64,000 bases of DNA, taken from contig JBAZTA010000002.1 of assembly GCA_041662125.1 (NCBI GenBank), positions 76,154 through 140,153 of the forward strand, in the 5' to 3' direction. Within the stretch, counting starts at the first letter, position 1; each line of letters begins with the position of its first letter. Below the pieces are notes generated by a model that saw nothing but the letters and a program-made list of their open reading frames with translations, was not told the origin of the DNA and did not search any database. Of the stretch, positions 9,001 to 51,000 are shown piece by piece. A program made the position numbers and the translations under genes. The DNA comes from Candidatus Omnitrophota bacterium (GTDB taxonomy: Bacteria > Omnitrophota > Gorgyraeia > Gygaellales > Profunditerraquicolaceae).

Positions 9001-12000
9001 CAATAATAGGCTTTGTGGTTTTATACGCCACCAGCATCTTTATTCTCCGTTAGAGAAATCTTACCTGCCCCCTGAGGATGACAGCGTGTATGCTTTGAGC
9101 AAATTAGAAAGAATAAAAATATATTTATCTAAAATGGCCTCGAATGGAAAGATGCGTTTAGTGTTTTCATACCGCCAGGATGTGCAGAAGTATGTGGCAA
9201 TGATCCGCGATAGTTTGCTTGCGGCATATCATAACTTTGATTTACGGTTATTATTGATCGATCGTCAAATAGGCTGGGATATGGATTCCAATATCATTGC
9301 AACGGTTGATGGTATAGGGGTGCGCAGCTGGAGCATGCAAGGCCAGGAGCGCGGCCTGGTGGTCCCGTGGGATGAAATGGATTTATTGCTTGATCAATAT
9401 GCGTATGCCGTGGTCGATATGCGAGGGCAAGTGCTTGCTGCTAAAAAAGTATCGTCACCTCTTCTTGATTCGAAAGTTGAAACTAAGATGCAGAAGAGCA
9501 AGAAGTCATGGCATGATGCTGTTTTTGGCAGGAAAAAGCTTTACGTTTTCTTATCTGCTATTTTATCCCTCGCCGTTATTACGGCATATTTTCAACCTAT
9601 TATTCGCAGTAAATCATTCCAGGAAAAAACCCAAATACAGAATACAAAAACCTACCAAGGCTTCGATGTATATCAGTGGATTGAAAAATTAGCCAATGGC
9701 AATTCACAGGAAAAAGAATGGGCGCCGTACGCCATCAGTAAGACCTATGGACAAGAGTCTTTGGGGTTGCTGGTGAAAATGCTGCGGCAGAAAGATCTGT
9801 CTGATGATACTCTTGAGCGGGTTTCGCGCGTATTCTTCCTGGTCGGGCCTGATTCTATTCATATTCTGCTTAAAGAAGCTGCAAAGAAAGATCCGCGTAT
9901 GCGCGCATATGCTTATCGCATTATTGGGGCTATCGGTAAATACGGGTATCCTGAATTATTCCGGCATCTACAGGATTACCGATTAAAACCCCATGCTCTC
10001 CGAATGCTCTTGTTGATTGGCCAGCAAGAAGGGTTTACGCGTCAAGAGCTCAAGAAAGCAATTAAGGTGATCACGCATATACAAAAGAAGAATGTTTATC
10101 CGCAAGCAGTAGTTCTTTGTCTTATTAAATCCTATACGGATGATCCATCGATGATTCCGGTTATTGATAAAATTCTTAAGAAAGACATTGTTTTCCTTTC
10201 TGCGCTTCGATTAGCCTTCACTCAGCAGGATAGGGGCGCTTTTGAGTATTTGTTAAGATCCTGGAACCGTACGAATAGTGCCCGTAATCACTTTATATTT
10301 GTTGTTTTAGAAGAAAAACGCGCATTTTCAGTCCCATTCTTGGAAGCCAAACTCAACGAATATTTGCTGAACAAGCCAATTGATGCCCAGAAAGAAGAAT
10401 ATATGCTGCTTTTAGAAAAACTCGATCCGGGCGCGCATTTTAATTTTGAGCTTAAGGAAAAAGCCAAATTAACAGAAGATACGATAAAGAGGTTCTTGCG
10501 GAATATTTTCGCGCCTTCTTCCTCGCCTGTTCAGGCGGCTGAAGAAAATTCATTGAAAAAAGATTTGGGAGGAACAAGAGATTTCGCAACTGCCGTTGGG
10601 ATGATCAAGCATGAGGACAATCATCGCGCTGAAGAGTATTTGCATAAATTGCTGGAGATGGTGAGAATAAACAAATGTTTAACCTCGGAAGAACAGGCTC
10701 TCGTCAAAGATATTATTGAGAGTCCGCATGTCTTGAAAATGCTGCTTGATAGTAATAATGCCCGCTGGCTTGAGAAAAGTGCGATCAGAGGGAAACCGGA
10801 AAGTAAAGCGATCGTAGGGCTGCTCGACCGGCAAGATAACAGAGTCATCATTGCTTTAGATAAAATGTTAAGGCCGCAGAAGGATGGAGGCATCCAAGAG
10901 GGCTCTGTGCTTTTACGCAAAAGCATTTTTAAATTCATTCTTGCTGTTGCTTTTGACGGCAGTCAGCATATCCGTTACGTTGAAAGGAAAGCTTTGCCGC
11001 TGTATTATAAACAAATTAAAGCGCTCGGGCATATTGTCATTCTTGGACAGGTGCCGCAAAGCGGGGAATTAAAGATAGGCAGGAAATGGGCAAGGCTTGA
11101 TGCGTCCCTGTATGGGTTATCGAACTATTTATTAGAAATGAATAACGGTATCCCGGTAAGAATGTTTTTCTTTAAGACCCATACCGCTCTTGAATTTCTC
11201 CCGGCCGTCAATAATAAAACCGGTGGTATTGAAGTAGTTCATATGGGGCAGATATTCCGGGAAGTATTTAAAAAATTATCTGATGTTACCCTGCTGACAT
11301 ATTTAGGAAGCCTGGGAGACTTAAGTATAGGGGGCGGACGCCCGCACAGCGATGGGACGGGGTATGAACCTTCCTGGTCGCGATTTTATTATCATCCTTA
11401 TGAAAAAGTAGAAGTATTGGTAAAAGACGGTTTAGTCTGGAGGCTTACTTCTTTGGAGAGTGATCTGGACCGCGCGTATCTGAGGATCATGCATGTGCCG
11501 ACGAAGCGCATTACAACAACGGCCATAAAATTAAGCCATAAAGATGTATCCCGCCTCAGTGATGAGTATCAGATCCATAATTATCCTTTGGATCAAGCGG
11601 GAAAATTAAATATTGATTCCCAGACGGTAATGAATTTCGGGAAAAGCCGCGCTTTCCATCGGCTTACGATATATGACATCCGCAAGAATAAAAACGGAAA
11701 AGTCTTTGCGGTGGCGGCAAAGACTTTGTCAGGTGTTGATAAAAGGCTTTATATCATTTACGCGCTGCCGGATTATCCTTTCAGGTTCAATAGTGAGCAG
11801 ATCTTAGCTGTCTTTAAGATGCACCTTGCTGGAGTCCTTGAGGCGTTGCCGTTCAATGCTTTTGTCCTGGAAACGATAATCCACAAAGATCAACGTTTGA
11901 GCGTGGGAGAGTATCTGTGGCGTTTAAAACATATTGCGAACAGTATTCCCGTAAACTTAGCCCATGCAGTTGCCAGGATGATGTATGTGGCAGGAAAACC

Positions 12001-15000
12001 TGCTTTTGTGTTTCTCTGCGGCAAAGAAGGCCGGGATATTACTGATAGAAAAGGTGCCCAGGTGATCCTGGATGTACGAGCAGGATTGGGCAAAGAAGTG
12101 CAGGCTGTTGCCTTGCCCGAGGTAAGCAGATTTCTGGAAACCAGTAATGAGTTGGCTGTTCCTTTTAAGGGAGAACGGGCGAATGCCTTCGCTGAATTTG
12201 AAGAATTTATACAGGAAGAAACAGAAATTTTAAAAGAAAAGATTAAAACGTTTATCTGGGGTAAAAAAACAAACAAGATCAACAAAGAGGTCGTTTGGTT
12301 TCAGCATCGGATGTATAAGATCGCGACGATGCTTATTAATCATTTTGATAAATCAGGGTCGGTACTGGTTCAGTTGTTCCTGGACCAGTATGTCCCGGCG
12401 GATAAAGAGCAGGGCGGGTTAGAAGAAGCTATGCGGCAGTTTGGTTTAACCCATTGGATAATTAGATTTGATAATGGTTCTCAGAGGCCAACGTATGTTA
12501 CCCATGCGTTACGGCATCAGGTGAAGGAGTATAGCGAAGAAATAATAAGTTTTTGCAGGAGGAATTTGAAAGCGTATATGCCGCCTATTGGTGTTCCGCA
12601 GGCCCGCAATAATATTCTAACTTCAGAGGATCAAGCGTTCTTAAAGCATTTAGGGGTGGTTAATAATCAATCCAGGGGAAGTAATCCACCCGCAGCTGCT
12701 CGCGCGTCTTCGGCTGTTTCCGTTACTGCCGTGAACTTTCCATTATGCGGATACGTTGAGGAAGGCAGGATTTTGGCGGAAAAACGCCGTAGGGATATCG
12801 TCAACCCCCTGACTGCCGCACTTGACCTCTTAGAAAAAAGAAAAGTCTGGGGTAATCTTTTGCCGGCAGGGGCTAAGTTTAATTTTACCTACGCGTTTTC
12901 CAGAGAAAGCGATATTTTTGCCTTAAGCGCGCAATTCAAGAATGTGATAGTTTTGCCTTTAGAGGAACGCCATAATGCCAGCTTACTTTCATTTATTATT
13001 CGTCATTTTATTCACGGGAAATTCATCCGTGAGGAAATCTCTCTTGATGATAAAAAATCAAAAGTATATCGAGGAGACTTGATTTTTCTGTTGAAACTTC
13101 CTGATCAGGAGCGCGAAAATATCATGGCTTCTTTGCGGCGCTATGATTACCCGAATATGGATAGCTTTTTAGAATTAAAGGATGCTTTGGAACAAGAAGA
13201 CCTTTTACGGTTATTCGCGCTTGTATATAACGGGGGAGATATAAAGAATGGATGTGCTTTATCTATTGGTAGGAAGTTTCAGGCGCGTATATTTCAGTCG
13301 GTCATCCCGAAACTGACCAAACTTGGTGTTTCAAGGGGGAGGGTGTTGAGCCTTATCCTGGGCCTGGCGCGTGTGGCTCAGACAACTGAAGAATTCTGGA
13401 TGCTTTTAGAAGGGTTAGCCTCGATCCCCGATTGGGTAATATGTATCCCTGAAGGGAAAAAAGCTGACTTGGGTGTCTTTGTTACAAAAATGGACCAGCT
13501 GCTTTCAGAAGGAATATGGGCAATTCATTATAATCAAGCGGTATGTTGTAAAACACTCGTTGATTCGGTAAAGGAAACCCTCGAACATTTTTGGGAATTC
13601 AAAGATTTTCAGGATGAAGCGCCTAATTATCATGCAAAGAGCCGGGAGAACTATTACGCAGACCACCTGTGTATGTTAAAAGGGTTCTTGGGCCAGATTT
13701 CCGGGGTGCATAAGTTTACTTTTGTATTTAAGGATACCATTGATGTGCTTTATTTTAAGGACCATCCTTTAGGCTTGGAAGCAGTGAACCCTGTGTATAT
13801 CGCCTGCGGCGATAAAAAAGAATGCGACGGACAGGGATGCGGCTGTAAAACGATATTTGAATTTAAATATTCAGCCCGTATGGAACATCTTGCCCGGCAA
13901 ATAACCGGTTATAAGACGAGAGTTTCAGTTTTTGGGCTGATCAGCAGCGCGCAGGAAAAGTTTATGAGACAGGAGAAATTAACCAGGGATGAAGAGATAT
14001 TAAGGCAGATTAAGAATATCGTATTTTTTGCTGAGTATGACGGAGGCGGGTTGATTGCAAAACTTAATCATTTTGTTAGGCAGTATTATCACAAACGAGA
14101 CCCGTTCAAAGATAATAAGCGCTTGTGCGAGCGTAAATCCTGGAATGAGGGCGGCTTTACCGTCCGTTTCACCTTGGGAGAATTTAAGATGTTCCTTAAA
14201 GAAAATGAAGTGCCTGCTTCTCATTTGAACTGGGCTTTTGACCGGCTCGGACAGCATTATCGTAATAAAGGATTTGATGTTTATATCAGTATCAGTAACC
14301 CCAAAGGGAATGAAGAAGAGAATGCTTCTTGCAAGGAAAATATCTCTCGGCGCAGGACAAGCTCGCCAATAAGTAACCAGGGGACTAACGAGCAATCAGT
14401 TTCGCTGAAAAAGGAGCCAATAACCGTTAAGTACGGAGAAAGGATATTAGTAGGACGCATGTGGCGAAGGGTGGTTACGCTGCGTTTTGGCCATGGCCGC
14501 GTAGGGCTCTTGGATGATATCTTGCAGGCTATCGGTGATAAAACTTTTGTGGGGTGGTTAGAATATTTGCATAATAAGCGGCCGAAAGAATTAAGTGTTT
14601 CATTGGAGACGGTAGAAAAAGATACTATGCGCGCGATCATTAAGGAGTTAAAGCGCGTTGAAGATTGGCAGGACGCCCAGCAAGACAGCCTGCCGCGGCA
14701 AAACTGGCTGATGAGGTTTACTATCCCGCATCAACCCGCGCAATTGTTGCGGATCACCCGGTTGCTTCGGGAGAGGGGCATTAATATCCAATCATTTATG
14801 ACGCCCACCTTTTCCCAATATCACCAGAATATGCGTTTTATTATGCAGTTAGGGATCCCTGGAAACTGCCCTTCTGACGTAGAGTCTGTTGTCCAAGAAC
14901 TCAAGAAACATCTTAGTGATATCCCCGATTTATCGATGCATCAGGCTGAACTGGTCGACTGGCTGGTGGAATATTTAACTAAAAAAATACCGGTTAATTT

Positions 15001-18000
15001 TAAAGAGGAAACTGTGCGCCGTTTCCGTGAGGCATTAAAGATCATAACCAGGCGTCACCTGGGTGAATCGAGAAAGAACAAAAAAGATTCATATATGATG
15101 CATCCGCTTGATGTGGCGATAATCGCGGCAAACCAATTTGGTATTCGCGACGAGGGTTTATTAGAGATGATTATTTTGGCGGCGCTGCTGCATGACACTA
15201 TCGAAGACGGCGATATCAGTGACGCAGAATTGCGCAAGAGATTTGGTGATGATATTTATGCGATTGTCAACTTGCTCACCAAACGCAAAGTTAACGGTAA
15301 AGCTGACGAAATCGCGTATCTGCGTCAACTCTGTGCTGCTGTTGGAGAATTAGGCTTTATTGCCAGGTTGATCAAGATCGCCGACCGTATTCATAATCTG
15401 CAAACTCTGGCTGGTGTTGAACATGATAAAGATTTTCATCAGAAAACCATGGTTTCGACACTTGCTGTTTTTATACCCGAGGTAATTGATACGCTTGATT
15501 TTTATGCTCTCGCTGACAAAGAGCATGAGCGCGTATTACGGCAGGCTAGAGGAGTTTTCGCGCAGCAGGTTATTGATACGGCAATAGAATTACATTTCTT
15601 GAATCGAAAAGGCGAAGTGAGCTTTAAGAATTTTAAAGAGTCCAGATTAAACGGCGAAACGGGAAAACGTCCGCGTTTAATCGGGAGGGATTTAAAGAAT
15701 CTGTTTAAACGTATGCAGCAATTGGCCTCTTCAATCAAGGCAAGTTCTAGCATCAGCGCAAATCCTGTTGCCTCCCCCATTACAGTTGAAGAAGTCAGGC
15801 GCCTGGTGCGGGAGCATTTGTTGCCGGTTACCGGCGCGCGGCATACCTTAAGCCATGGAGATGATGTTTCTGACCTTGCCGGGTATTTAGCTCAGCATTT
15901 AGGGTTAGCGGAGTGGGAATCGATGATACGGATTGCCAGCCAGCTGCATGATGTCGAGAAGATACATAATAGAGAAGTATTGATGCTGGTTAATTTCCCT
16001 GGCGATTTATCCATGAATCAGCGGTTATTTGTACAGAAATATCATACTACCCCTCCGTTTATGGGAGTTAAGGCAATGGGAATAGAATTAGCGCCTTTTG
16101 TAGAAACTCTGATCGAGTTTCATCACCGCCCTCAGATGTGTAATGGGAATAATGCTATAAATACGGCTGCGCTTTGCCTTTCGTTGGCAGATCTGATCTC
16201 AGCGATGAGCGCTCCCCGGCCTTATTTTTATGTGGGAGGCAATATTGAAGATAGTAACAGTATTCCTGCTTGGCTGCGTGGTTTCTTATCCGCCAAAAAT
16301 ATTGTATTGGAAGCGCGCGTCTGGGAAGCGATCGAAGATATGGTAGTTGATAAAAGAGCCCGGATCCAGCAGATCAACGGGCTGAAGGCTGATGCGGTCG
16401 CTGATACCGCTAAGAGTTGGTTTGTTTGCGGGCAGACCCAAGAGTGCCTTGACGCCCTTGCTGAACAGATCCAAGAGTCTCGTAATCAGCAGAGAATAAA
16501 CCGTTTGTTGACTATACTTGTTGATCCAGTTGTGTCTGCGGTTTTAAGTGATGGAGAAATGAGGGCGCTCTTTGCGAAAGTTTTGTCAGCAGCACATTCA
16601 AAAGGGGAGTTAGTAGTAAATCATATGAGTGTTTTAGCTGCAATCCCCGCAATTCCCCGCCAATTTAAACAAATCTATTCAGAGATCATTTCTCGTAGCT
16701 CCTCCTCACCGCTGGCGTATTTAACAGCGGCAAAAAAATTATTTACTATACCACTTACTATTTTATTTGTAATTCCTTTGACGCTGATTTTTATAATAGC
16801 GAGTATTTTACACGAGTATGTTCACCTTTTAATGGCTAAGATATTTGGCCTGGAGACAGGAAAGGTGAGATTATTTGTGGAAGATTCGAGTTCCAATGTA
16901 GAAGTCATGGTGCAGGGAGCAGAAAACTGGAAACTTGTTTTTATATATTTGGCTGGTCCAGCTATGGATTTATTTTTAGGGGCAGTCTTTTTATTCTTGA
17001 TCTACTTGAACGGTTTTTCCTGGGGATGGCTAAAGATTTATGTTAATGTTGCACTTTTATCAGCAGCGGGGCTTCAAATACAGTCAGTAATTAATAGTCT
17101 TAACCCCAAATATAGCACAGATGAAGGCCTCAAGAGCGACGGTTATTTAGCTTTGGAGTGTATAAGAAATATTAAGGCAGGCAATAAATTTTACGATGGT
17201 GATAATTTTGATAGCTCCTCGCCGCTGACTCATTTCAATTTATCTGAGTTTGCGGATAAGCTATTAAGAAGAATGCGTGGGAAATATATACGAGGGTATA
17301 GGTATTTCTATGAGATTGCAGAAGATAGCCGTAAATGCGGTGCTTTGTGGGTCAATGATTGTAGGGTGGATGCGAATATTGGTAAGGGTGTATATGATTT
17401 TGTTTTTCCCCACCCCTTTGACCAAAATCTTGTAGTAAGGATAAGCAAATCAATTGATCTCTGGCGCCCAGTTTCAAGGAAAAAAGAATTCCAGAGGTTC
17501 CAGCAGTTGGCACGGCTCGGCATCGGGCCGCAAGCCTTCGCCTGGTGGATGCGTGATCAATACTCTTTTATGCTTGTAGAAAGAGTACAGGGCAATTCGC
17601 TGGATAAAATTGTTCAGAAACGGCTTCTTACTCAAGGAGAAATTAACTTTCTTAAGAGACTTTTGGATGTTTTGATTGAAAATAGGATTTATATAAGCGA
17701 CTTTAAACCTGCTAACATTATGTTTACTTCAGAGAAGGCTGTTATCTGTGACGCAATGTGCGCTGAAAACGCCCTTGCAGATGATCGCGCTGCACTCGCA
17801 GAGCGCTATGTTCGTATGATGCGTCCGGATCCATGGATTGACGTTGATCCTGATTTCGAATTAGAGAGGTATTTGCTTTCTTCTTCGCCGCTGGGTGAAG
17901 AAAATAGAACCATCCCCTTTTCTAAAATTGCCTCTTTGAGAGAAAAGGGTTATATCAAGAGAGAAGAAGAAGTCAGATTTCTTGCGGCACAATTAAATTC

Positions 18001-21000
18001 TAAAGATATGGCCACAAGAGAATCTGCAGGCCGCGCCATAATAGATGAGGTACTTGGAGAAGAACATAGCAATTTGCGCCTCAGGGCTTTTAAGATATTA
18101 CTCCCCATTATTGTTCCAAGAGTAATGAAAGCAGGCGCGAGGCTGCCTTGCTGGGAACAGGTCGATCTGCATACTCACACGGTAGAGTCTGACGGTTATT
18201 CTAATCCGGCAGCGGCTATCCTGGAGGCATTTGAGCGCGGTATGAGCGGATTGGCCATTACCGACCATAATACCTTCCCCGAAAACAATGAAGCTTGCAG
18301 GGCGGTTAAAATGCTTAACGATCATCTGCGTTCGTTCGGAAAAATCTTTAACCTTATTCCAGGCTTAGAGATAACCACTTATTTTGAAGGGGTAGTGGTG
18401 CATCTTTTAGTTTATCTGCCAGGGTATTACCGACGCCGTAAAGAATTATTGAAGTTTGCCTCGGCGAAGGCGCTTTTTGATAAGTTTTTACTTCACGATA
18501 GAGAACAAGTAAAGCAAACCAGGAATTTAATGGAAGCGATAAATGAGGCGTATCCTGATTTACAGATGCAGTGGCAGGATGTAGTGGCGGGTAGCCGCGG
18601 GAAAATCTACAAAATTGAGGCTACCAACGCGTTGTTTCGGAAATATCCTGATAAATTTAAAGAATACGGTAAAGCCAAAGATCTCTGGCATAAATGGCTG
18701 CCGTCAGAATTAAGGAAGAAAACAAAGGTAAACGTGGACTATTACGCCTCTTTTGAAGAAGTGATCGCATTCGTCGCGCACACCGGCTCAAAGCTTGCTA
18801 TTGCCCATCCGAATGAAATTCTAAGCGAAGAAAACAAGCTAAACAAAAAGAAAACATTTCCAAGGCTGCTTGAGCATTTGGCCGAATTAGCTAAACGGGA
18901 GATTATCAATCCGAAATCTTTGTTAGGCGTTGCCTATTACAGCGAGAAACTCACGCTTAAGAATTCGTTGCCTGATAAGCAGGTGCGTGGATATGTGTAC
19001 TATCACTACAAAAAAATAGTAAGCCGTTATCCATTCCTCAAGGGCCTATTTTTGCTTTTGCCGGAATCAGACAGCCATGGAAAGCTTTCTACTCCTGCCG
19101 GCAGGGGCAGAGATTATCCGCGTAACAGGCAGGTATACACAGGCAAGGTAATGCAGAGGGTATACCTGCCTGTTCCGACGCGGCTTGCATCTTCAGCGTT
19201 GAAAATTAAAGATATGTTTTTCTCTTTGAAGGGCGCAATACAGTTGACAGAATGGGATGATAATAGAACCGGCCTAGAAAATTATTTAGGCAAGGTTGTA
19301 TTTCCAACCGGCAGATTACATGAGGTGCGTAGTTTAATAGAAGAAAATGTTCCGCTGATTAAGATTGCGGTGGAAGGCACACATTCTCAAGAGCCGATTC
19401 CCTGGCAGGTATTTAACACCTCATTTAGAAAAATTGGAAAGAGCTTCAGCCGTGCGCTCGGATGGCCTCTGCGCCGTAAGATTAATCAATTAGCTCATTC
19501 TAAGATCAACCAGCCGTTATATGTGCTTGATTGGGGAGCCGGCAATCTAAGGGCTGCTGTAAGATTAGGGAAAATGCTCAAAGCAAGAAATGCCTATATC
19601 ATCGGCTTTGGGCAAGATTATGACACGCGACTGATTAAATGTCCTTATGATAACGTAGTGTATATTATTGATTCTGCGCCGAATTTGTTTAGCCGCATAG
19701 AAAAACTTCTGCCCGCAGGCCATACGCTTGATGTAGTTTACAGCTATCTCGGTCTGGGGCATCTGTTATGGAACGATAGAGCCGGTTTCATAGATTATCT
19801 TGAGAAATTAGCAGGATTGCTTTCACCCCATGGAGTGATTGTATTTGATGTATATGGTCAAGAACGAGATGTTTTTCTACCCTGGCGAACCCGCTTGGAG
19901 AAAACGTTTAGGCATTTTGAAGTTTCTGGTGAAGTAAAAAGAATTGTTAATGGGAAGGAATCTGAATATCGAGTGGCATTTTTTGAAAAGGATAGTGCCG
20001 CCGCTGCGCTGGATACAATAGGTCATAATACTGTTAAAGAATCAACAAGCCTTAAGATGTTAAGGTCTCAAGTAAAAGATTCCTTGCCTGTTGGAATACA
20101 AGTAATAGAAAAAAAATACAATGGCGCGAGTTTCCTTGTATCAACATTGAAAGTATTCTTTTCGGCTTTGCGAGGCGGGCACGTAAAGTATATTGTGAGC
20201 ATTTTCGCATTAATGTTAATCTTGCAGGTAAAATGCCCTTCCATTCTGCCTCAAGTGAACAAAAGAGGCGAATTAAGAGAGATAGTGATAAGGCAAGGTG
20301 GCTGGAATTTTGATTTGGCTATTTTTATAACTGGGGTAATTCTTACCTTGCTAAATTTTATGTCAGGTTTAGGGGCGAATATTCTGCCTTTTACTTCCCC
20401 TTATTTGCTGGTGTGGGTACTTAATAAATATTTCAATAAAAAACAAAGAGATAGGCTTCTTATACATGAGTGGTTGCACGCGTATCAAATAATCTTGATA
20501 TATCATGCGGGACGTAATGTGAAAAGATTCATTACTACACATATGGCTGCACTTGAAAACAACACAGCACAATTCGAGTCTGCATTGTTAAGAGACGGTG
20601 TATATATTCCTGAAGTATTACAAAAGTTTGAGAAAGAAATGAAGTCTCTGATTAGGATTTTAAGCGGTCCTGAATATAATCTTGCGACTTCTAAAACCCG
20701 TGCCCCTCATTCCGATAATACAAACCCTGTTTCCTCGCCGCTGACAGTAACAGACGGTTTTGAGGAAATCATTATCCCAGCAGACAGACAAATTCGGGCG
20801 CATATACGCCGGCAGAGAGCAGATGATACAAATGCCGACAAGCCAGTGGTAATTTCTGTCCATGGTTTAGGCTGCGTTATTGACCCAAGAAAGCTTCTTC
20901 GGTATTCTTTTCAGGAATGGCTGGGCTGGAGGCGTCCGTATTACTGGCAGAACCTTACTCATGAACAAGGTTTATTGAAGCGTGCGGCAGAAGAGTTTCA

Positions 21001-27000: not shown

Positions 27001-30000
27001 AGTTTCGCTTTATGCCGCGAAAACCGCATATTTGTTTCTCTGGGTGGCCGAGATATTGTTTCGGAATCATACTTCAACCTCCCGCATTTCTATATTCAGA
27101 GATCATGTTTTTGTCAGGAGAAGCATAAGAGACGATAATGATTTTCCTCAGGAAGAAACATTTACCGGCATACCACAAGAAGAGCTGAGTTTGATAGCTA
27201 ATTTTATTAGAGAAGATATCGATATTAGTTTTAATGGTGACAAACGGCTCTTTTATTATATTAACGCTGGGCATCAACCGGAAATCACATTCCTTATAGA
27301 GAGCATCGCCGACTATATGAAGCGTAAAGGGTATAGAGGATTTAAGGTACATGTTGTAGTAACAAATATAGTGCCACGGCGCGTAGAAAAGGCTGCAGAA
27401 ATACTCAATAATCTCGCCGCTGAGTATTCCTCTTTATTCGCGTTAGATTACATTACTTTTCAGTTGGATAATACGTTTGATGAAGGAGTGAAGCGATTTA
27501 TTCAATGTGCAAAGAATTTCGGAGGTTTTAACGGTATCTTGTGCAATGTCGGTGGAGCTACCGGCGCGTATGAGGTTTTGGCTCTTATACCTCAGGCATT
27601 GCGTAATGATGGCTGGTTGCAAGTGGATGCAAAGAAGTATACCTTGGATTGTCTCAGAAAGGCTCCAGAAGAACGAGTATTTAAATATATAGATAAAAGC
27701 TCAACTTATTTGACGATTTTTTACGGATTTATCAGCTCTTCGCCGCTGGAGTTAGGTGCATCCTCTAATTCTTCTGCGGTGGCTGCTCAATCTGGCGTTT
27801 ATTCTTTGGCGCAATTAACACAGCGATTAATAGAGGGAAGGTTTTACAAGTCGTTAATTCCTGCTAAGTCCGGGGCTGGATTGTATATTGATGATATGCT
27901 GGAAAATCATATGTATCCGCAGCCGTTGGCGCCGGAGAAAAGGAGTTCTGAAATAGATATCTTGGGCAAAAGAGGCATACTTAATTACTGTAAATTTCTT
28001 TGCTCAAGGTTCCCCGGGTTATTTATGAAATTTGGAGAATACGGAATTCTTGATAATGCATGGCGGCCAAAGCTATTATCTAAAGAGCAGGAGCGCGTAA
28101 TTTTTCTAACAGAAGTATCAGGACAGTATGCCAATCCCAGCCTTCTCTGGCATTCAGTAACCCATCTTGCGCAGATGTCAGTTGCTGCAGAACGGTTCCG
28201 GGGAGCGCGTGTTTTAGATTTGGGATGCGGAAGGGGAATCTCTTCGCTCTTTGCCGCCTTGCTTGGCGCAAAGACGGTAGTTGGAGTTGATAATGATCCT
28301 TCAGTAAAAAAGATTTTTGAAACACAAAGAGAACTAAATCAAAGCTACTCCGGAAGATCTGTATTTATTGAGGGTAGTTTTGCCGAAGCCGCTGTGACTC
28401 ATGAACTGGAGAAGTATCTGCCTTTTGATATTGTTATGGCAAATATCGGCCCGCAGCAATACGGCGATGCAAATAAGGAGGCGATCGAACTGATTGTTCG
28501 GCTAAGGCAAAAAAGATGGTCAAATGATTTTGTAGTGATAGGGAGCGGTTCTGGTATGGGGCTAACCGCATATGAGCATTGTGCAGTGCCTGGATATGAA
28601 TATAACTATCAAGAAGAGCTTGATTTTCTTCGGCTTTACTTTGCAATAAGTGAACCTCATATTATTGTCGGGCGTAGCCGTCCGTCTTTATTGTTCCCGG
28701 AACAATGGTTTCTTACTACAAGTTATTTACTCGAGGCTGCGCAGTTAAACAAATGCGCTTCTCAGCTCCCCAAAATAACATTAGAAGCTGTTATTGCAGA
28801 AATAAATAATATATCGCCTATTTATGCTTGTGCAGTAATATTGATTAACGCAAGAATTGTAGCTGGTAAGAATATTATGCGCTGTTGGATGCCTTCCTAT
28901 TATCAATATCAGATAGAGGCATCGGAAGATACAGATCCTTTTGAATTATTGAAGTTTGCTGAGCGTGTTTTACGGATTGATCATCATTCCGGTTTTGCTC
29001 CGAAAGTCAGTGAGCTGTTAAGAAAGTTTGAGAAGATATCTGCTGCCTCGCCGTTGGCGTCCTCTATAGAGCTTCTTATATTTGATTTGACTCAAACACT
29101 TTGCGAATATGGAGAATTTGGAAGAGTAAGAAAACAAATATCCTATGCATGGGCTATCCAGGAGTTATCCTGCCGAAACAAAAATTTAACAACAGCTGGA
29201 TTAGAGGAGATTATCGTAAAGCTTGATAGCCTTACCGGGGCGCTTGCATCACTGGGGCTGTCTCTTGATAAATATTTTGATTATTTAGGCCTCAATCTTC
29301 CTGTCACAGCTTATCCCGAGAGTGATCCGGAATTGCGTCAGGTTTTACTACAGGAACAAAAGAAAGGTTATCGTTTGGCTCTTGCTACTAATAATGGAAA
29401 TCTGGTTACTCAAAATATACTTCATAGCCTTGGGGTAGAGGATTTATTCTTATCTGTTATGACACAACAAAGTATGGGCAAGGGTAAGCCCGATCCAGGT
29501 ATATTTTATGAATTGTGTAAGCTGCAAGGTGTTAGTCCTGAACGGGCGGTTTCAATCGGCAATAGTAGGCAACATGACCTGGAAGCCGCAGCTCAAATTG
29601 GTATGTGGGGGTTACACGTAAATGGGCCACGAGAACTTAAGGATACTCTGCCTGGCCGGCTCGTTGAATTAAAAGAATTGAGAAATAAAATCCTGAGAGG
29701 GCGCAAGGTGATAGTGCCTGATTATTTGGTTGTACCTGTAAATTTGCGCAGCGCCTCGCCGCTAACACAAAATAAGGATGGTCTTAATTCTTTTCACAAA
29801 GCCGGCAGCTCAGCTGTCACGGCGAATTTAAAAACAAAAGAATTCTGGACAAAAGCAAAATGCGAAGAAATGCTAAAGAATCCTCCATCCAATGTTAAAG
29901 ACCCTAAAAACTCGTCTCATTGGGTCAGTGCTGGATATAGCGGTATGATAACGTTCGTATGCAGGGAATATGGAGGTTGGCCTAAGTTTATCGAGAGCAT

Positions 30001-33000
30001 GGGATATGAGCCTATTATAAGGTCCAAAGAGGTTTGGAAGCAAAAATATGAAAATTGGGGAATAGTTCAATCAATCGTTCCTGATTTAATCAAACATAAT
30101 GCTATTATCGGATACGGGAGGGTTTTAGAAGATGATGAAGTAAAAGCATTGGCTGAAGAAGTGCAGAATGGCAATAAGGCTGCCAGAGAAGTATTAATAG
30201 TTACAAATGTTCCTATGGTCATATATCGAGTGATACGACAATACCCCAGTTTCATTAACGAAAGAGATGATTTAATTCAGGTAGGTATTTATGGCCGCGG
30301 TGATAGAGTAGGCGGTCTTGCTCGCGCAGTAGAACGTTTTGAGCCTGAGAGAGGAATTCGGTTTATCTCTTTTGCATTACAATGGATTGACGCGGTTTTA
30401 TTACAAGCGGTACGAGAAATATTAAATTTACAGAAAAAAGAATTACTATGTAATTATAGCTCTCGTGAATCTTCCCAAAAAGACCCAATCAATTTAATAC
30501 CCGATAAAGCAGATGTATTTAAAATAATATCAGGCGACGCCGATTTACGCGCAAGACTATTCGAGGCTATTGAATATTTGCAATTGGAGATTTCTGAAAG
30601 GGATAAGGATATTTTGTCGCGGTTGCTTGATGCTGAAAAACAGTCATATATAGCCAACCATTATAGGATAAAACCTCAACGCGTACAGCAAATTTTTAAA
30701 AGATTGACCAAAATGTTAAAAGAAATAATTGATTCAGATGAAATTAAATATCGGTCACGCAGTGCCTCCCCGCTAGAAAGCGCAGAGCGGTTCACGCACG
30801 GACCGTATCCTTTCCAGGCTTATTGTTTCGAATATGGATCGGTAAGCGTCAGTGGATACAATAGCCAAGACAATATGATTGAAATTGAGTTTCCCTATGC
30901 GCGAAAAAAGCCGGCGTTGAAAGCGTATTATAACTCTCATAAATTTGCCTTATTAGGTTCAGAATCACATAGGCGCTTAATCGAGGAGAGATACATAAGA
31001 ATATTTAATAAAAGCGGGATAATTGACCAGCTGATTATCTATAATTATGTTAGAACGTTTTTTTCTCAAATATATAAGGAAACCCGGCTCTATTCATCAA
31101 TGCCGTCTTTCTATCAGGACGATACTGATATTTATAGGTTGAGCAAAATGCCTCAAGGTCTTAAGATTGCTTTCGAAAAAGTATTTCAGATGATAAACAG
31201 TGAGTTTAAAATTTCACCGCGAAACTTAGAAATGGCAGCGCGTATGACATTTCTTTTAGGAGATGTGCACTATTTCCAGAGCGGGAAAACTCGTTATTTT
31301 CTGCCTAACGATATTAAAGATTATCTTTTAGAAAAGATTTATCACGAGGCAGAGAAATGCATCTTCACTTTGCAGGCTGATGCAACAAAGTTGCGCGATA
31401 GAGATATGATCGGTTCATTGGCTCGGCAAATAGCAGATTTATTACAGAGTAGAAATGACGCCTTTGATATTATTAGTGTTGTGCCGTATCTAAACGAAAG
31501 AGAAAATAGCGGGATTGTTCCGCTTACTCGGGAGGTAGCTGGTAATACGCAGTCTACGTACCAGGAAGTCTTGAAAGCAATAGAATTTGAGAAGAAAGAA
31601 GAGGTGGAGAATGGAGGCGTAAGCAATAGGGTTCCTGAATATGAGGTTACGGATGTGGATTTGCGAGGCAAGAGTGTGCTTCTGCTTGATGATGCAGCCG
31701 CAGAAAGAAACGTGCATCTGGCTTGTATGGAAAGAATTCTGAGGGCAGGAGCTACTCAGGTGTTTGTAGTAAGGATCGGTAATGATTTTCAGGAAGTTTC
31801 TGATCAAAAACAATCAACCTCGCCGCTAAGATTGTCACAAGATGATAATAAAGAAGTTACCCGTCAAATTAATCTCAAACTAGAAAGCTGCGGTTTTAAT
31901 ACCTATAGGACACTTAAAACTTTTAAATTCTGGCCATGTTTATATGAAAGAGAATGGGTAATGGTTAAGGAGAAATCCGGCACAGACTATTATTATGGTT
32001 TTATCAGGTTTGGCAACCTGATATTTATTGATGAGCATATTTACTCTGATTTTTTAGGCCCTGATCTTAGAGACGTTTTGAAAACCAATTCCATACGATT
32101 AGTAAATAGCAGCGCTCATAAGATGTTTTATTATTTCCCTACGTATACGTCTCTGGCGCTTTTTGCCATGATTCATACTGTTGGTGATATGCATGTAATT
32201 GATTGTGGTTCTGGCCGCGCTGAATTATCCTTGGCGGCTCTTCGATTAAATTCCAGCGTTGATTCAATTGAGATTGATAGTACTTTGCTAGAGATCGCAA
32301 AGCTGCAAATGAAAAACAACAATTTTAAAGAGGGGATTGATTACCGTTTACTTAACGGCGACTTGAAAGATCCCTCTTTGATTGTCAAATCCCTTCAACC
32401 CCGTGGAATGAACCGGGAAATCGCTATCGTCTCAAATATTGGTTCATGGGGGATGTATTCGGTAACGAATGCCGATAGTATGAAGCTTATTCCCTATCTC
32501 CCGAATGTAAGGTTATTTATCGGCTCTGGATATAAGATTAACGAGGATGACAAATATAGAAGCATGTGTAGTCATATGGCTCTTATTGAGCAAAAGTACG
32601 GTTTTCATGTTGAGTTAGAAGTTGGTTCTTATAATTGTGCTGCCTGGGTGGCTCGTAAACCTCGCAGCAGTTCGCCGATAGATAGGCGGTTTCTTGTCCG
32701 CGAATTAGAAAAATGCCTGTATCAAATGCCCTATGGCTTACAGGACAAAATATATCCTTCTGCATTCAATGCCCGGCAAGAAAAACAAACATACGGCAAC
32801 TTCATTAAAAATCAGCTCTCCCGCATCGAAAAACAATTGCCTATTGATACGATGACGGATATTTCTAATCAAGATCTGGGTTTAGTCGTTGATCAGGCAA
32901 AGCGCCTGCATCATCAAGGGAAAATGAAGAGCCTGGCGTTTCTGTTAGCCAATATAGACAGGATACATGAAGCATTCGAAGTCTGCCTGCTTGATCAAGT

Positions 33001-45000: not shown

Positions 45001-48000
45001 CCTTATTTATCTTATGGTCAATGTTTTGATGGGTGAACTTATTGCGCGAAGGAATAGTTTTGAAGTGATCCCTTGCGCCTTAAAAGCGATCCCTGTTTTA
45101 ACTGAGGTTTTCCGTAAATTCGGGCTTGAATATCGTGAGTCTGAAGATAGGGTTGTATTAGATAGCGATGTTGGAGACTGGAAGCTTTATTTCAGGCGGA
45201 TCAGCCCCGTGGTTACAAAGTTAGAAGATTATTATAAAAGCGCAATACATGAGCCTGCAGGTAAAGCTTCTGGCCCTCAAGGTTCTTCTCCTCTCCAGTC
45301 AGATAATCTTACCTCTGGACCAAGTGTATTTATAGATATTGCGTCGTTAGAGATCCGCACTGAGAAATATTTGCTGACGTTTAAACTCGATTATGGTGAA
45401 AGATACCGTATTTATAAAGACGGCCGGGCCGCGGGAAGTTTTACTTTGGAATTTACCCGCGAATCGCTGAATATTTATAATATTGATATATTCCCGAATA
45501 TGCAGCGAGAGGGGATAGCTAAGGTTATATTACTTAAATTGTTTGCTTCTTGCATTGAGGCAGAGAGGCATCTTACTATTTATGATGCCGGCTGCGCGGA
45601 CAGGATCTATAACCTGGTAAAATATTATTTTTCCGAGTATCCCAAACAGATCAAGATCAAAGGCAAAACTTCTGATTACCGGGAAGTAGCATTTGATGAG
45701 GCTAAAGAACTTATAACGCCGGTATCGTCTATTATCATCAGTATCTTCCCGCGCGCCAAAGAATCAGCTTCCGCAATTACGGCCCAGAGTTTTCTCGATA
45801 GCTATCCTTTGGCTGGAAATCCTGTTCATACGTATCCGTTGTTCGTGCCTCATCAGGATGGATTGAGGTATTCTTATAACCTTAATCGGGAGGCACATGT
45901 TAGTTTAGAAAGCAATAAATATATGCTGCGGGGTTGTCTTGATGGGGCCGCGCAGGCGGTATTAGCAGGCCTTTTTAACGATTACCTTATCTCCATTAGG
46001 TCATACCTGCAAAATGCTCCTCCGGAGAAATTAATAGTAGCCGTTACCAATAGAGAATCAAACCTGCAGTTCCTTTCTTCGCGCCTGTTCGTCTCTATCG
46101 CCTCAATATATGGCAGCTCTCTCGTGTATGTCCATCCCTCTCTTTTTAGCCTTGCTTCGATCATCCAGGAAGATATTATCCGCCATATGGCCGGCTACGC
46201 GCGCGGTTTAAGTGTCCGGGAGGTTATCGGATCAACAGTCGCTTACTTTACGATACGTCCACAAAAAGCAAAACTTTTCTTAGAAACGGTTAAAAAAGAA
46301 GGGCTATTATTAGATGAATCTTATGGAAAATTAATAAAACAGGCAGGGGATATTGACAATCGACGGGCATCTTCATCTCTGGTTAGGCAAGATTCTTTCA
46401 TTCATCAACTCAACATAGATAGTACTGATGTGCCGTTTGTAAAAGAGGCGTTGGTTCATTTAATCAGGGATTACGGGCACAAAGCATCTACCCTGAGTGT
46501 TTTGGCAAAAGCGATAAGGAGCATTAAAGAAGGAAGAGGGGGTATCCCTTTTAGAATAAAGGATGCCTATTATGTGGCGAAAATGATCTTGAACTTTCAA
46601 GATGCGCTTTTTAATCCTTCTTATACGTGTAATATTTATAATCCTTTTAAGGGGTTTGCCGCAATTATTCCGTCATTGCCATTTTCTGATGAAGATAGCT
46701 TGGTATTTGCCGTATTTCCTCAAGAACAGCTTGCTTTCAGGAATAATACCGAACCAGAGAAACAGCATGTGCCAGCTGCCCTCTATTACATTGGATATCA
46801 AAATAACGCCAATAACCTCATCGTGCATACTATGCAGAGTGACCTTTTTGGCAGTTTGAAAGACGGCTGGAGAAAACGGTGTAAATTCTGGCCTGAAATG
46901 GGGATTTCATTATTGGAAAGCTATGCGCAAGAAAGAAAAATGCATGGTATTTTTATTGCGCCTGCCGCGTATCAAAAGGAAAAATGGCTCAATATTCCTG
47001 AGCATTTGGCCAAGAGGATTTATGATGAAGCTCCGTATAAGCAGGGATACGTTCCCGTCTCTCTTTATCCACAGTGTATCATAGAAACGGTTGTTTTGCG
47101 TCAGGCATGGTATAAGACAATCCTCTCGGGTTTGAGTTCTTCTCCTTTAAATAATGGTATTCATGAGACATCTGAATTAAAACACTTGAGGGTGCTCCTT
47201 GGGGGAACGTTCTCTGATAAGCGAGTAATTGATGATGCAATACGGCTTATGGGAGACAACGGCTTACGTGAACAAGGGATACTTTTGCTTCAGAAAAAGT
47301 TATGGCAGCAGAAGGGCCGTGGTTTTGAGGAAAGTGATCCTGAGTTACGTAAGTATATCTGGGAAAAGCTTATGACGGTTTCTTTCAGAGAAGGAGGTTT
47401 TATTAAGATCGTCAAGAGAAGTAGTTTGCCTTTTACCATAACCCGGCAATTGTTTAAAGAGCTGGGCCACGCGGTTATAGCCGGAACAATGCCTCAAGGA
47501 GGTTCTCTTTCTTTGGGCGGATACCTTTTTAAATTTACGCAGTATGGCGGCGTGGATTATGAATTAGAAGTGGAAGCGGGACTTTTGAAGCGCATATTCT
47601 TCATGAATGATTATTCTCTGGTAGAGTTCCTTTCGGTTCTTGACCGCTGCACAGGGGAAATTATTGATCTGCATTGCGGGAAGATCCCCCAAGGGCGTTT
47701 CAGCGGCTATCAAGATGCGGTTATAGAGGGATATTTGGGAAGAGATGGAATATTGGATTTGGCCGGCAGGCGTTGGGCTAAATTCGGCAGTGAATTCGCC
47801 TATGAAAAGGCCAGGCTTTATGTTAAAGGCGGTTTAGTGAGTCGCTGTCAATCAATGGAGTCAGAGTTTGATGAAACGTTTTCATTGATCTGGGATGACA
47901 GGAAGGATGTTTATATTGATTGCTTTTGGGCTCGATTACCTCAGCAGAAATTGAACGTTTTGCAATCGTATCACCAGATACATCTTTTTAGGTTAAGTAA

Positions 48001-51000
48001 GGATGGTTCGTTGTTATTAGGAGGAGAGGAATGGATTAATTTTGGCGAGGAATATTCTTACCGCTACGCGGATATCTTTGATATACGTAATCCAAGCGGG
48101 GAAAAAGCGTTTATATTCGGGGCTCGGGTTTGGGAAGGTGCTGATATGAAAGTTTCTAAAAGCCTCTCCGGAGTTTACGCGCTTCAAGAAGGCAGCCGTC
48201 CGCAAGATTTTATCAAAGGAGAATTATTGGCTGTTTTTGAGAAATGGAGCGATAAAAAGATGGCTCAACTGCCTACGCAGAATTACATCATTTCTCCAAG
48301 GACATTAACTGTTAACGCAGCGTTGGAATTGCAGGGGTTCGTTGCATCTTTCTCAGATGAATTTTTCTCTTGTGCTGAAGTTGAGGTTATGGTTATGGGA
48401 GGAGAAAAACGGCTGGTAAGGTTCATACGTGACAATCGTGGCGTACCGGTATTTGATAGTGAAAATAAACCGCTCGTGATAGATCTGTCTTTAGGCATTA
48501 AGGCACAGTGTTTTGAAAAAGCCAAGGCATATCAGGATAAAAGGCGCAGCACGGTACAGTCGCGTTTTAATGAGGCGGTTGGGTATTATAATAATGGAGA
48601 TGTGGAAAATACACGACAACTGCTTTCTCAAATAAATAGATCTTTTAGTCAGAGAAGAATTCTGATCGATGGAGAACGATCTCTTGTTAGGCAATCAAAG
48701 GCGTTTATTCATTGGCTGGAAACTATCCGTCTTCTGCGCCAAAAACTTTCTTGTTTGAAAGGTGAAGGCGTAACTGTTTTAAGGGAATTATTGCCTATTC
48801 TTGAACTGCGGTATTTTGAGCCGCACGCCGCGGAATATTTACAGGAAATAGAGCGTAGGATCATGGATATGGTTCAGGAGAAAGCAATGGAGGGCCTTTA
48901 TTACCGGCAGGCAATAAAGGATATCCGTCATGCCGTTACCGTAGAAGCATTGCATGCCTTGTTTTTGGATAATCTGAAAGCCTCAGGCCGGGAAGAAATT
49001 GAATTGTTACGGAGTGAAAGGCGAAAAGAGATAATCGAGCAAGAGGTTGAAGGAAAGAGCATGGTTGATTTACAGCGGATGCTTTGGAAGGAAGACGAGC
49101 TGCATCAGGATTTTGCCTTGCCTCAGGATGATCATGAATCGCGCCTCTACGTGTGGAGAAAGCTTTTAGCTCTGTCATTTGGCAAAGATACGCCCGTTCA
49201 ATATCTTAACCGGCAGGATTCCTCGAGAGCGGTTAATCGCGGAGCGTTACGCTCATTAGGCCATGTGGTGATCCGCGGAGTCTTGAAAGGCAACTTTGCA
49301 CTGCGTATTGGTGAATATAGCTTTGGCTTCCGGGGATACGCAGATTCCGCCTATGAGCTTGAAGTGGATAATGGCATCCTGCGGCAGATATTTTTCTTTA
49401 AAGACCATACGCTGTTTGAATTTTTTCCTATTATAGACAACCATACGGGTGAGGTCATTGATGTTCACCGAGGTACGATCGTTACCAATAAATTTATGCG
49501 CTACAACGATATTACGACCTTAACGTATCTGGGAGTCAATGGGCAGCTTCGTATCGGAGGCAGGCGGCCGAATATCCTGGGTGATCGTAAAAAAGGGATT
49601 TGGACTTGGGCATCTTTTGGAGAAGAATACAAATATCAAAAAGTGAAGCTCGTGATCAAAGACGGATTAATATCATGGTGTACTTCGATGGAGTCCGGCC
49701 TGGATGAACCGTTTATTTTGATCAAAGATAAACGCCAGGGGAAGTTTATTTCCTGCATCTGGGGCCGTTTCCTTGAAGAGCATTTAAATCAGTTGCGGCC
49801 ATGGCATGAGATCCATCAGAAACGCTTGACTAAAAGAGGGTTGTTGATCATGGCCAATAAGGTATGGATGGATTTTGGCGCGGATTGCGGATATGGGTTT
49901 GCCTGTGTGGATGGTATTTTAAATCCCTCTCACAAGAAAGCTTTTTTAGTGAGAGCTTACGCGAATAAAAAAGACGGGTCTTTGGTGCATAAGAAATTGA
50001 ATAAGCTTTATGCCCTCGATAATGGATTTAGTCCGGATGATTTCAAACCGGGTGAATTAATTGAAGTATTTGAGCGATGGAGTGAGAATTTAGAGGCATT
50101 AGTGTCTGTCTTTCTTCAGGGTAACTTTATTATTCAGGGCCTTACGACTGATGCCAAGGGCCGTTTTTGGTTCCGCGATTTTGATATTACCGCAGAGCGC
50201 CTTCCCGAAGTAGCAGTCGAAATTTTGGCTTTAGATAACCAGGTCGCACTTATCCGTTACCGTAATGATTCATGCGGTAGGCCTGTTTACGGTATTGATG
50301 GCAGGCTTTTTGTCGAGATTGACCTGCGGGAAGGTAGTCTCAGGTCGCAGCTCTGGCAAAAATCCCAAGCATATCAGTCGGTTCATATGCAGCGCTTAGC
50401 TGCTCGATACCGCCAGGCAGTTGCGTTGGTAAGGCAAAATGACTATCCCGGCGCGCTTCATTATTTGCATGTTTTAAAGAGCAGGCTTGAAACTGAGAAG
50501 ATCCGTGTTTCAGGTGAAAAGACTATTGCCCGCAGGGCTGATACGATCCGTGCTTTGATAGTCGAAGTTAATTCGCTGAGGCAAAAAATCAGGCGAATGG
50601 ATGAGAAAACGGCAAAGTTACTCGAAGAAGATCTTGCGGGAGTCATTCCGCAATACCTGGACGGCGGCCGCGCTGCCATAGGGGATTTACTTTCACGGTT
50701 GCGCAGGATAGAGAGAGGCTTGCGTCAGGAAAGGTTTGCACTGATGAAGCGGGTAAGAACGGCCTGTATAGAGTTGCTGCATGCGCAATCTTTAGAAGAA
50801 TTGGAAAATATAACGCTCAGCGGTTTTGATGGATCGGCGCTGGAAAAAATATCGCGGGTGAAAGAAATTAGACGTAAACGACTTCTCTCTTCCCGAGAAA
50901 AAGAACTTGTTCGAAACTTGAGGGAAGATCTGCGCCAGGCAAATGCGCTTGCGTCACTGGAGCAGCTGAGTATTGACAATGCTATTGGAGAGCCCCGTCG

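Follow-up and report, generated by a model that had tools for sequence, protein, structure and literature searches.

A 342-residue segment encoded in a 64,000-nucleotide (nt) stretch of a Candidatus Omnitrophota contig (JBAZTA010000002.1; the whole stretch is referred to below as the window) is a complete, divergent alternative sigma-70-family factor. It occupies nt 29750-30775 of the plus strand and corresponds to amino acids (aa) 9917-10258 of a giant open reading frame (ORF) that runs through the window from end to end. The reading that we favour, with a probability of roughly 60%, is that an ordinary-type alternative sigma factor gene has been fused in frame and is now one of at least 32 modules of a polyprotein-like ORF of more than 64 kb. 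Because every module is bounded by the same Ser/Ala-Ser-Pro-Leu junction, the ORF has the look of a polyprotein rather than that of a membrane-tethered pro-sigma factor. A sequence-only reading of this DNA had recognised sigma-70 regions 2 and 4 inside what it called a membrane megaprotein, and had likened the arrangement to membrane-sequestered pro-sigma/anti-sigma systems released by regulated intramembrane proteolysis (RIP). The sigma identity was borne out by the analyses described here; the likeness to RIP systems was not.

The peptides that had been taken as regions 2 and 4 (DDLIQVGIYG...RFEPERGIRFISFALQWIDAVLLQAV and IKPQRVQQIFKRLTKMLKE) are present in the plus-strand frame-2 translation where that reading had placed them, and profile searches with the 342-aa module assigned it to the sigma-70 family. 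TIGR02937 of NCBIfam, a model of the sigma-70 superfamily despite its name, matched module residues 145-325 over positions 2-163 of its 165 (43.3 bits against a cutoff of 42.9; E 2.8e-11). Partial matches were obtained with the RpoH, SigK and RpoS models (E 1e-14 to 1e-9) and with other NCBIfam sigma models (to E 1e-5), and PHROG 351, annotated as sigma factor, matched at E 1.4e-15. The Pfam model Sigma70_r2 reached 23.7 bits (E 4.3e-5) against a gathering score of 24, and the Pfam region 4 model gave no match to the module of the window, where HTH_28 appeared at E 0.08. When a profile built from an alignment of 16 sequences of the clade to which the module belongs (alignment A1) was compared with PDB sequences, RpoS matched with E 3.5e-28, once over regions 1.2-2 and again over regions 3.2-4, the latter stretch covering RpoS 210-330.

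Structure prediction led to the same conclusion. The AlphaFold2 model, also based on alignment A1, has a mean predicted local distance difference test score (pLDDT) of 77 and is confident at module residues 30-90, 100-235 and 264-330, with residues 1-29, 239-262 and 333-342 disordered. It contains a sigma-2 domain (regions 2.1-2.4) and, C-terminal to it, a sigma-4 domain, and the best 50 Foldseek matches in the PDB were sigma factors in 50 of 50 cases, all in polymerase complexes. Together with the TIGR02937 match, these folds confirm that regions 2 and 4 stand in the right order and spacing inside the giant ORF. The module runs from an HNH_repeat-like unit through a W..KY.DW bridge, region 1.2, sigma-2 and a short disordered linker to sigma-4, and a sigma-3 domain is absent. 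Its parts, between the two junctions, are the following:

29750-29764, plus strand: upstream junction SASPL (AGC GCC TCG CCG CTA), in the stretch of 29 N-terminal residues that the model shows as disordered.
29837-30019, plus strand: N-terminal helical domain, module residues 30-90, similar to HNH_repeat (PF18780), one copy, pLDDT 91-95.
30029-30109, plus strand: clade-specific bridge W.QKY.NW..V..IVPDL, with W96, W103 and V106 nearly invariant in alignment A1.
30110-30457, plus strand: region 1.2 and sigma-2 (regions 2.1-2.4), with the insertion YGRGDRVGG in the 2.2 loop (9 profile positions in the family alignment).
30458-30538, plus strand: low-confidence linker between sigma-2 and sigma-4 (pLDDT below 50, residues 239-262).
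30539-30757, plus strand: sigma-4 (regions 4.1-4.2), with the helix-turn-helix ...SYIANHYRIKPQRVQQIFKRL...
30761-30775, plus strand: downstream junction SASPL (AGT GCC TCC CCG CTA), where model residues 333-342 are disordered.

At both ends the peptide reads RSASPL when one more codon is included (nt 29747-29764 and 30758-30775). A phmmer search found no further sigma copy within the window.

By sequence the module is nearest to RpoS, RpoH, SigA and the primary sigma factors, that is, to groups 1-3. The earlier description of it as an extracytoplasmic function (ECF) or group-3 factor fitted its approximate size, given the lack of a sigma-3 domain, but did not hold for the sequence, since region 1.2 is present and the best matches belong to groups 1-3. 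Assignment to the ECF factors (group 4) was accordingly rejected, the absence of sigma-3 being the sole ECF-like trait. The module shares with group 2/3 factors (RpoS, RpoH/sigma-32, SigB/F/G and SigK) region 1.2, the sigma-2 and sigma-4 folds and their order, as well as a DLIQ.G...GL.RAVE.F.P core-binding signature, and its best profile and structure matches lie there. Unlike these factors, it has a short disordered linker in place of sigma-3, a 2.2 loop lengthened by about 9 positions, an HNH_repeat-like N-terminal domain followed by the W..KY.DW bridge and changes in residues presumed to read the -10 element, and it is encoded within a giant ORF.

The closest relatives of the module surfaced only in an exhaustive HMMER search of 1.84 billion representatives, which returned 24 clade proteins at E<=1e-10 and then about 1,900 ordinary sigma factors; word-indexed protein searches gave ordinary sigma factors only, and pattern-based locus searches with the sigma module in genome and metagenome contigs gave no matches. 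The clade appears to be specific to Candidatus Omnitrophota, from whose metagenome-assembled genomes (MAGs) all members with a named source come, and one fragment already carries the annotation 'sigma-70 family RNA polymerase sigma factor, partial'. In 11 of the 24 proteins the match is internal to a chain of 2,000-4,900 aa, and several proteins have two copies. Other members stand alone as genes of about 410-420 aa, for which no membrane segment is predicted. One of these, P0007 (416 aa as called, with in-frame stops upstream), passes the Pfam gathering scores with 35 bits for Sigma70_r2, 27.3 for Sigma70_r4 and 37.4 for HNH_repeat; a second, P0013, has 410 aa. The columns of alignment A1 that are conserved most strongly fall in region 1.2 and in regions 2.1-2.2 (GN.AA, DL and GGL.R), where known sigma factors touch the beta-prime clamp helices.

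Two relatives are orthologue-like. P0019, a partial protein of 4,510 aa from MAG GCA_028710715.1, keeps the order HAD module, junction, sigma; its HAD module is 54% identical to that of the window and its sigma module 45% identical over regions 1.2-2.2. The other, L009, comes from a 167-kb metagenome contig and was retrieved with a trimmed alignment (A2). It has an open frame of at least 6,765 aa with an [SA][SA]SP[L]-type junction motif as in the window, and its sigma module shows 46% identity over 303 aa, regions 2.3-2.4 and 4 included.

The N-terminal unit of the module follows the pattern NPP..V.DP.NS..W...GY......GGW and occurs in 1-6 copies ahead of sigma across the clade (2-6 in the relatives). 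Pfam did not detect PF18780 in the window copy of the sigma module; the family is above its gathering score in P0007 and in P0018 (51.7 bits). PF18780 bears the name 'homing endonuclease associated repeat', and some proteins consist solely of HNH_repeat-like units (compare P0007, P0012 and P0018).

The frame in which the module is embedded has no stop codon, so that the megaprotein of the sequence-only reading is real as an open frame:

2-64000, plus strand: giant multi-module ORF in frame 2, 21,333 codons free of stops, open at both ends of the window.

Over the same 64,000 nt each of the other five frames has 848-1,855 stops. Pfam and NCBIfam scans detected more than 14 distinct domain families across the 21,333 aa, including FBPase_glpX, HD, M50, PHP, a PrmA-like methyltransferase, HAD, sigma, ThiG, PRK, CheR, DFP and CPBP, and a hydropathy scan gave about 15 transmembrane (TM)-like segments, sparsely set at about one per 1,000-1,500 residues. 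With well over the 10,000 aa, the many enzyme domains and the sparse TM helices that define the class, its predicted product belongs with the giant multi-enzyme proteins of Omnitrophota, and its closest named relatives are proteins of Candidatus Omnitrophota MAGs. The frame is under purifying selection where this could be measured, with ratios of nonsynonymous to synonymous substitution rates of 0.21 and 0.14 for window aa 1401-2500 against the contigs L007 and L008 (CAZPNW010000221.1 and CAZPNW010000065.1), both from one fragmented MAG, in which the matching frame is fully open and 79-82% identical; the measurement is confined to the FBPase block, the DNA relatives of the sigma module being about 46% identical and saturated at synonymous sites. 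The submitter label of that MAG, 'uncultured Planctomycetales', clashes with the other relatives, which are assigned to Omnitrophota.

Short peptides divide this frame into modules. [SA][SA]SP occurs 27 times in the ORF against 0.95 expected, and [SA]SP[LIVM] 31 times against 1.9 expected; a slightly broader pattern yields 32 modules of 161-2,061 aa in addition to partial pieces at the window edges. The features needed here are:

16700, 17213, 21605, 25079, 29042, 29750, 30761 and 58493, plus strand: examples of the about 30 sites of the junction peptide [SA][SA]SP[LIVM].
29042-29749, plus strand: HAD-family hydrolase module (aa 9681-9916), upstream neighbour of sigma, HAD_2 E 6e-13 to 9e-14.

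Junctions lie between detected domains and inside none, often a few residues ahead of the natural N-terminus of a domain. Thus AASPL precedes HAD motif I (LLIFDLTQTL), which begins 8 residues past the junction of its own module, SSSPL separates CheR from CoaB/DFP, and SSSPL also sits ahead of the first TM helix of an M50-like module. Since HAD, methyltransferase, CoaB/DFP, CheR and M50 modules are flanked in the same way, the SASPL peptides on either side of sigma, which had been read as its linkers, are there but are not specific to it; they are two of about 30 copies of a general junction. The motif also occurs in P0019 and L009, and its position is kept in the 80%-identical relative. Other Omnitrophota giants with a sigma of this clade have versions of their own, of comparable significance: RRSASG in P0005 and P0011 (where about 0.1 copies of SASG are expected and 12-14 occur), SSSS[LI] in P0014 and SSSP[VI] in P0015. 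As far as the sequences tell, then, a conserved short motif marks each boundary between complete proteins, as would be expected of a polyprotein.

The order of the modules has been shuffled between relatives, since a block of 900 aa with FBPase_glpX lies downstream of sigma in P0019 and on the other side of the HAD-sigma pair in the window. This block (window aa 1496-2386, nt 4487-7159) is 46% identical to P0019 aa 2899-3787.

The junctions are conserved in their codons as well as in their peptide. The Ser before Pro is encoded by TCG at 15 of 30 junctions against a background of 11% (p 1e-7), and the Pro by CCG at 22 of 30 against 33% (p 7e-6), which gives the pattern TCG-CCG-CTG/CTA. A TCG bias was also found in L009 (8/15) and in a further relative, L001 (7/10), whose modules are only about 45-54% identical to those of the window. 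In P0005 (L005, GCA_030697785.1, 2001-15659) RRSASG is spelled cgccgg-AGCGCGAGCGG, a partly palindromic sequence, in 11 of 14 copies; the arginines ahead have CGN codons, which are a minority elsewhere, and the RNA windows are unusually stable. This conservation beyond the peptide, in the window as in L001, L009 and P0005, would suit a different account, in which the giant ORF is not translated as a unit: internal initiation or processing of the mRNA would yield each module separately, and the junction would act as a nucleic-acid signal, its peptide being a by-product. We consider this improbable. A Shine-Dalgarno (SD)-like site with a start codon follows 4 of 30 junctions against a background of 11.7%, and Met is not enriched downstream of them, so that internal translation starts after junctions were rejected. 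At three degenerate junctions (aa 15096, 15714 and 19500) the peptide is encoded differently, by TCT CCT plus TTA/TTG/CTC, which indicates that the peptide is selected in its own right. In addition, no consistent hairpin was found at the junctions of the window lineage, where the minimum free energy of -7.2 versus -5.2 could be due to G+C alone, no Rfam match was found in or around the sigma module, and a 64-kb open frame is hard to explain without ribosome read-through.

A conserved RNA hairpin at the junction was also rejected as a candidate, the P0005 lineage being stable and the window lineage showing no consistent structure. Pausing during translation, a signal for processing or recombination mediated by the junctions could each lie behind the codon conservation. 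No tRNA was found in or around the sigma module, and promoter-like sites occurred at chance frequency (43 versus 45 expected). Terminator-like sites numbered 25 against 13.7 ± 4.0 in shuffles; they are short, lie on both strands and away from junctions, and were given no weight.

The proposal that sigma is released by RIP had drawn on two protease-like modules of the same ORF, and both were found, with scores under their family cutoffs:

16700-17212, plus strand: M50 (site-2-protease)-like mini-module of 171 aa (aa 5567-5737), with HEYVH in a TM helix, LAGPAMD, and SSSPL on both sides.
60236-60667, plus strand: CPBP (glutamic-type intramembrane protease)-like module (aa ~20079-20222), NF041647 (E 8.7e-9) and MrtS/MrtJ, all below cutoff.

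The CPBP-like module has TM helices and the motifs EEILFRR, FAAYH and HAVSN; the M50-like module scored 22.1 bits with PF02163 against a cutoff of 27.2, and NCBIfam gave no match to it. Their presence in one chain with sigma, with HEYVH inside a TM helix, and the existence of TM segments in the protein would fit a membrane-sequestered pro-sigma factor freed by either or both of them, in the manner of pro-sigma-K/SpoIVFB or RsiW/PrsW/RasP. What surrounds the sigma module makes this the least credible of the accounts considered here, and highly unlikely. The strong TM segments closest to it are at aa 6731-6788 and aa 13974-13992, and no strong TM helix was found from aa 6788 to 13974, that is, for about 3,100 residues upstream and about 3,700 downstream. 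The word membrane is only loosely true near the module, from which the nearest strong TM helix is more than 3,000 residues away. A Pfam scan of 1,200 aa, covering about 400 residues on either side, returned HAD and a weak Sigma70_r2 match only, and no anti-sigma or other regulatory domain. Neither a membrane-spanning anti-sigma domain nor such a pro-sequence, then, adjoins sigma. Some 4,200 residues separate sigma from the M50-like module upstream and about 9,800 from the CPBP-like module downstream, and neither protease is tied to sigma more than to any other module. Moreover, the free-standing members of the clade have neither a predicted TM segment nor such a pro-sequence, and the junctions that flank sigma separate all modules, so that any processing would be generic and polyprotein-like.

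A second HExxH motif (IHEWLH) was noted at aa 6822 (nt ~20465), about 35 residues past the TM pair at aa 6731-6788; it may belong to a membrane-proximal metalloprotease-like domain.

Under the reading that we favour, that of an ordinary-type sigma factor fused into a polyprotein-like ORF, the giant ORF would be translated whole as a precursor and would behave like a polyprotein. The sigma module would bind core RNA polymerase through sigma-2, and its regions 2.3-2.4 and 4.2 would direct the polymerase to a promoter class of their own. It could do so once cut free at the [SA][SA]SP[L] junctions on either side, or without leaving the chain. How much sigma is available would then depend on how the giant protein is made and processed, rather than on a dedicated anti-sigma/intramembrane-protease switch. 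Release by cleavage at the junctions is suggested because these differ between lineages, which resembles the co-evolution of viral proteases and their sites, and because free-standing homologues exist.

A stronger version of the same idea, which we put forward only as a tentative possibility, is that of a true bacterial polyprotein. Here at least 32 proteins, sigma among them, would be made as one chain and freed at a lineage-specific junction ([SA][SA]SP[L] in this lineage, RRSASG elsewhere), the TCG-CCG codons would be selected, for instance to make ribosomes pause or to signal processing, and sigma, which lies about 30 kb into the part of the ORF covered by the window, would appear late. 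In that case sigma would become available only after long translation and processing, which would build a delay or a feedback into transcription.

Several observations weigh against the favoured reading. The window copy lies slightly under the gathering score of the Pfam region 2 model and is not detected by that of region 4. In region 2.3-2.4 the window copy has FISFALQWIDAVLLQ in place of the FSTYATWWIRQAITR of E. coli sigma-70. Residues that we take to read or melt the -10 element are altered (W433 to Q, R436 to D, Q437 to A and T440 to L, by our reading of the alignment in E. coli numbering); F427, A431, W434 and I435 are, by the same reading, retained, and Y430 is F. Finally, BLAST against P0019 aligns regions 1.2-2.2 only, which suggests that the DNA-reading parts are fast-evolving or relaxed in some lineages.

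These altered residues, and junctions whose cleavage is putative, are also what would be expected if the module were never released and were either a tethered RNA-polymerase-binding domain, recruiting or sequestering polymerase at a membrane-anchored giant, or a decaying relic with a sigma-2 fold. The concentration of clade conservation in regions 1.2-2.2, the core-binding part, points the same way. We nevertheless regard a permanent tether or a relic as doubtful. The orthologue in L009 is 46% identical across the whole module, regions 2.3-2.4 and 4 included, the clade consensus in A1 retains FSTYA..WI and the region 4.2 helix-turn-helix with its RV.QI pattern, and free-standing members pass the gathering scores of both Pfam sigma models.

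Giant proteins of Omnitrophota have been described before, among them a class named 'multi-enzyme metabolic cluster' in which TM helices are sparse (bioRxiv 10.1101/2023.11.21.568195; bioRxiv 10.64898/2026.06.07.730766). The ORF of the window resembles this class in its length of tens of kb, in its many Pfam domains (HAD, HD, methyltransferases, HEAT), in its sparse TM helices and in having its relatives in Omnitrophota MAGs. The word 'sigma' has 0 occurrences in these two reports and neither gives a junction or cleavage motif; 'cleav' and 'linker' are absent from 10.64898/2026.06.07.730766. West-Roberts et al. (10.1101/2023.11.21.568195) consider that C39 or S8 peptidase domains might do the cutting, and note a lack of information on where cleavage occurs. 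What appears to be new here is that a factor of the sigma-70 family is encoded as one module of a giant, polyprotein-like gene.

The arrangement can also be compared with two better-known systems. Like pro-sigma-K and pro-sigma-E of Bacillus subtilis, sigma would here be made as part of a larger precursor, and its activation would be proteolytic if release by cleavage holds. Unlike in those cases, the precursor exceeds 21,000 aa, as against 20-27 extra residues there, no membrane-associated pro-sequence lies beside the module, and the putative cleavage motif stands on both sides and is common to about 30 unrelated modules. With viral polyproteins of the picornavirus or potyvirus kind the ORF shares the concatenation of complete proteins, transcription or replication factors among them, in one frame, and short conserved peptide separators that differ between lineages as in protease/site co-evolution. 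It differs from them in being cellular DNA, in that its cleavage is putative, and in that the codons of the junctions are conserved too.

Some further features of the ORF were recorded. GC skew is positive in all 2-kb bins of the window (0.06-0.24). Three paralogous blocks of about 400-500 aa (window aa 3616-4079, 15716-16239 and 16342-16876; nt ~10847-12238, 47147-48718 and 49025-50629) share 32-39% identity with a region that is repeated in P0014; Pfam annotates none of them, and they form an internal repeat family. The DFP/CoaB domain at 58517-59083 (aa 19506-19694) scores 260 bits, far above all other domains of the ORF, and comes straight after the CheR methyltransferase module, with the SSSPL junction between them; it is a well-conserved enzyme of coenzyme-A biosynthesis that is apparently encoded solely as a module here. 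Weak matches to LmbE-type deacetylases (BshB2 at E 1.3e-6, Mca and MshB) were seen at 62354-62545 (aa 20785-20848), and a weak match to the CCA-adding enzyme (E 0.03) farther on, within the last 1,300 residues of the window.

As a rule, sigma factors are small proteins under separate regulation; here a complete one recurs, in some cases as two copies, within giant ORFs of a phylum that has not been cultivated, and part of transcription control in these bacteria may be delivered via a polyprotein-like precursor. The most useful by-product is the junction motif, because it makes the question of processing testable. It provides concrete predicted processing sites for the Omnitrophota giants, turning the question of their cleavage into one for direct proteomics, and offers rational points at which giant ORFs may be split for annotation and structure prediction.

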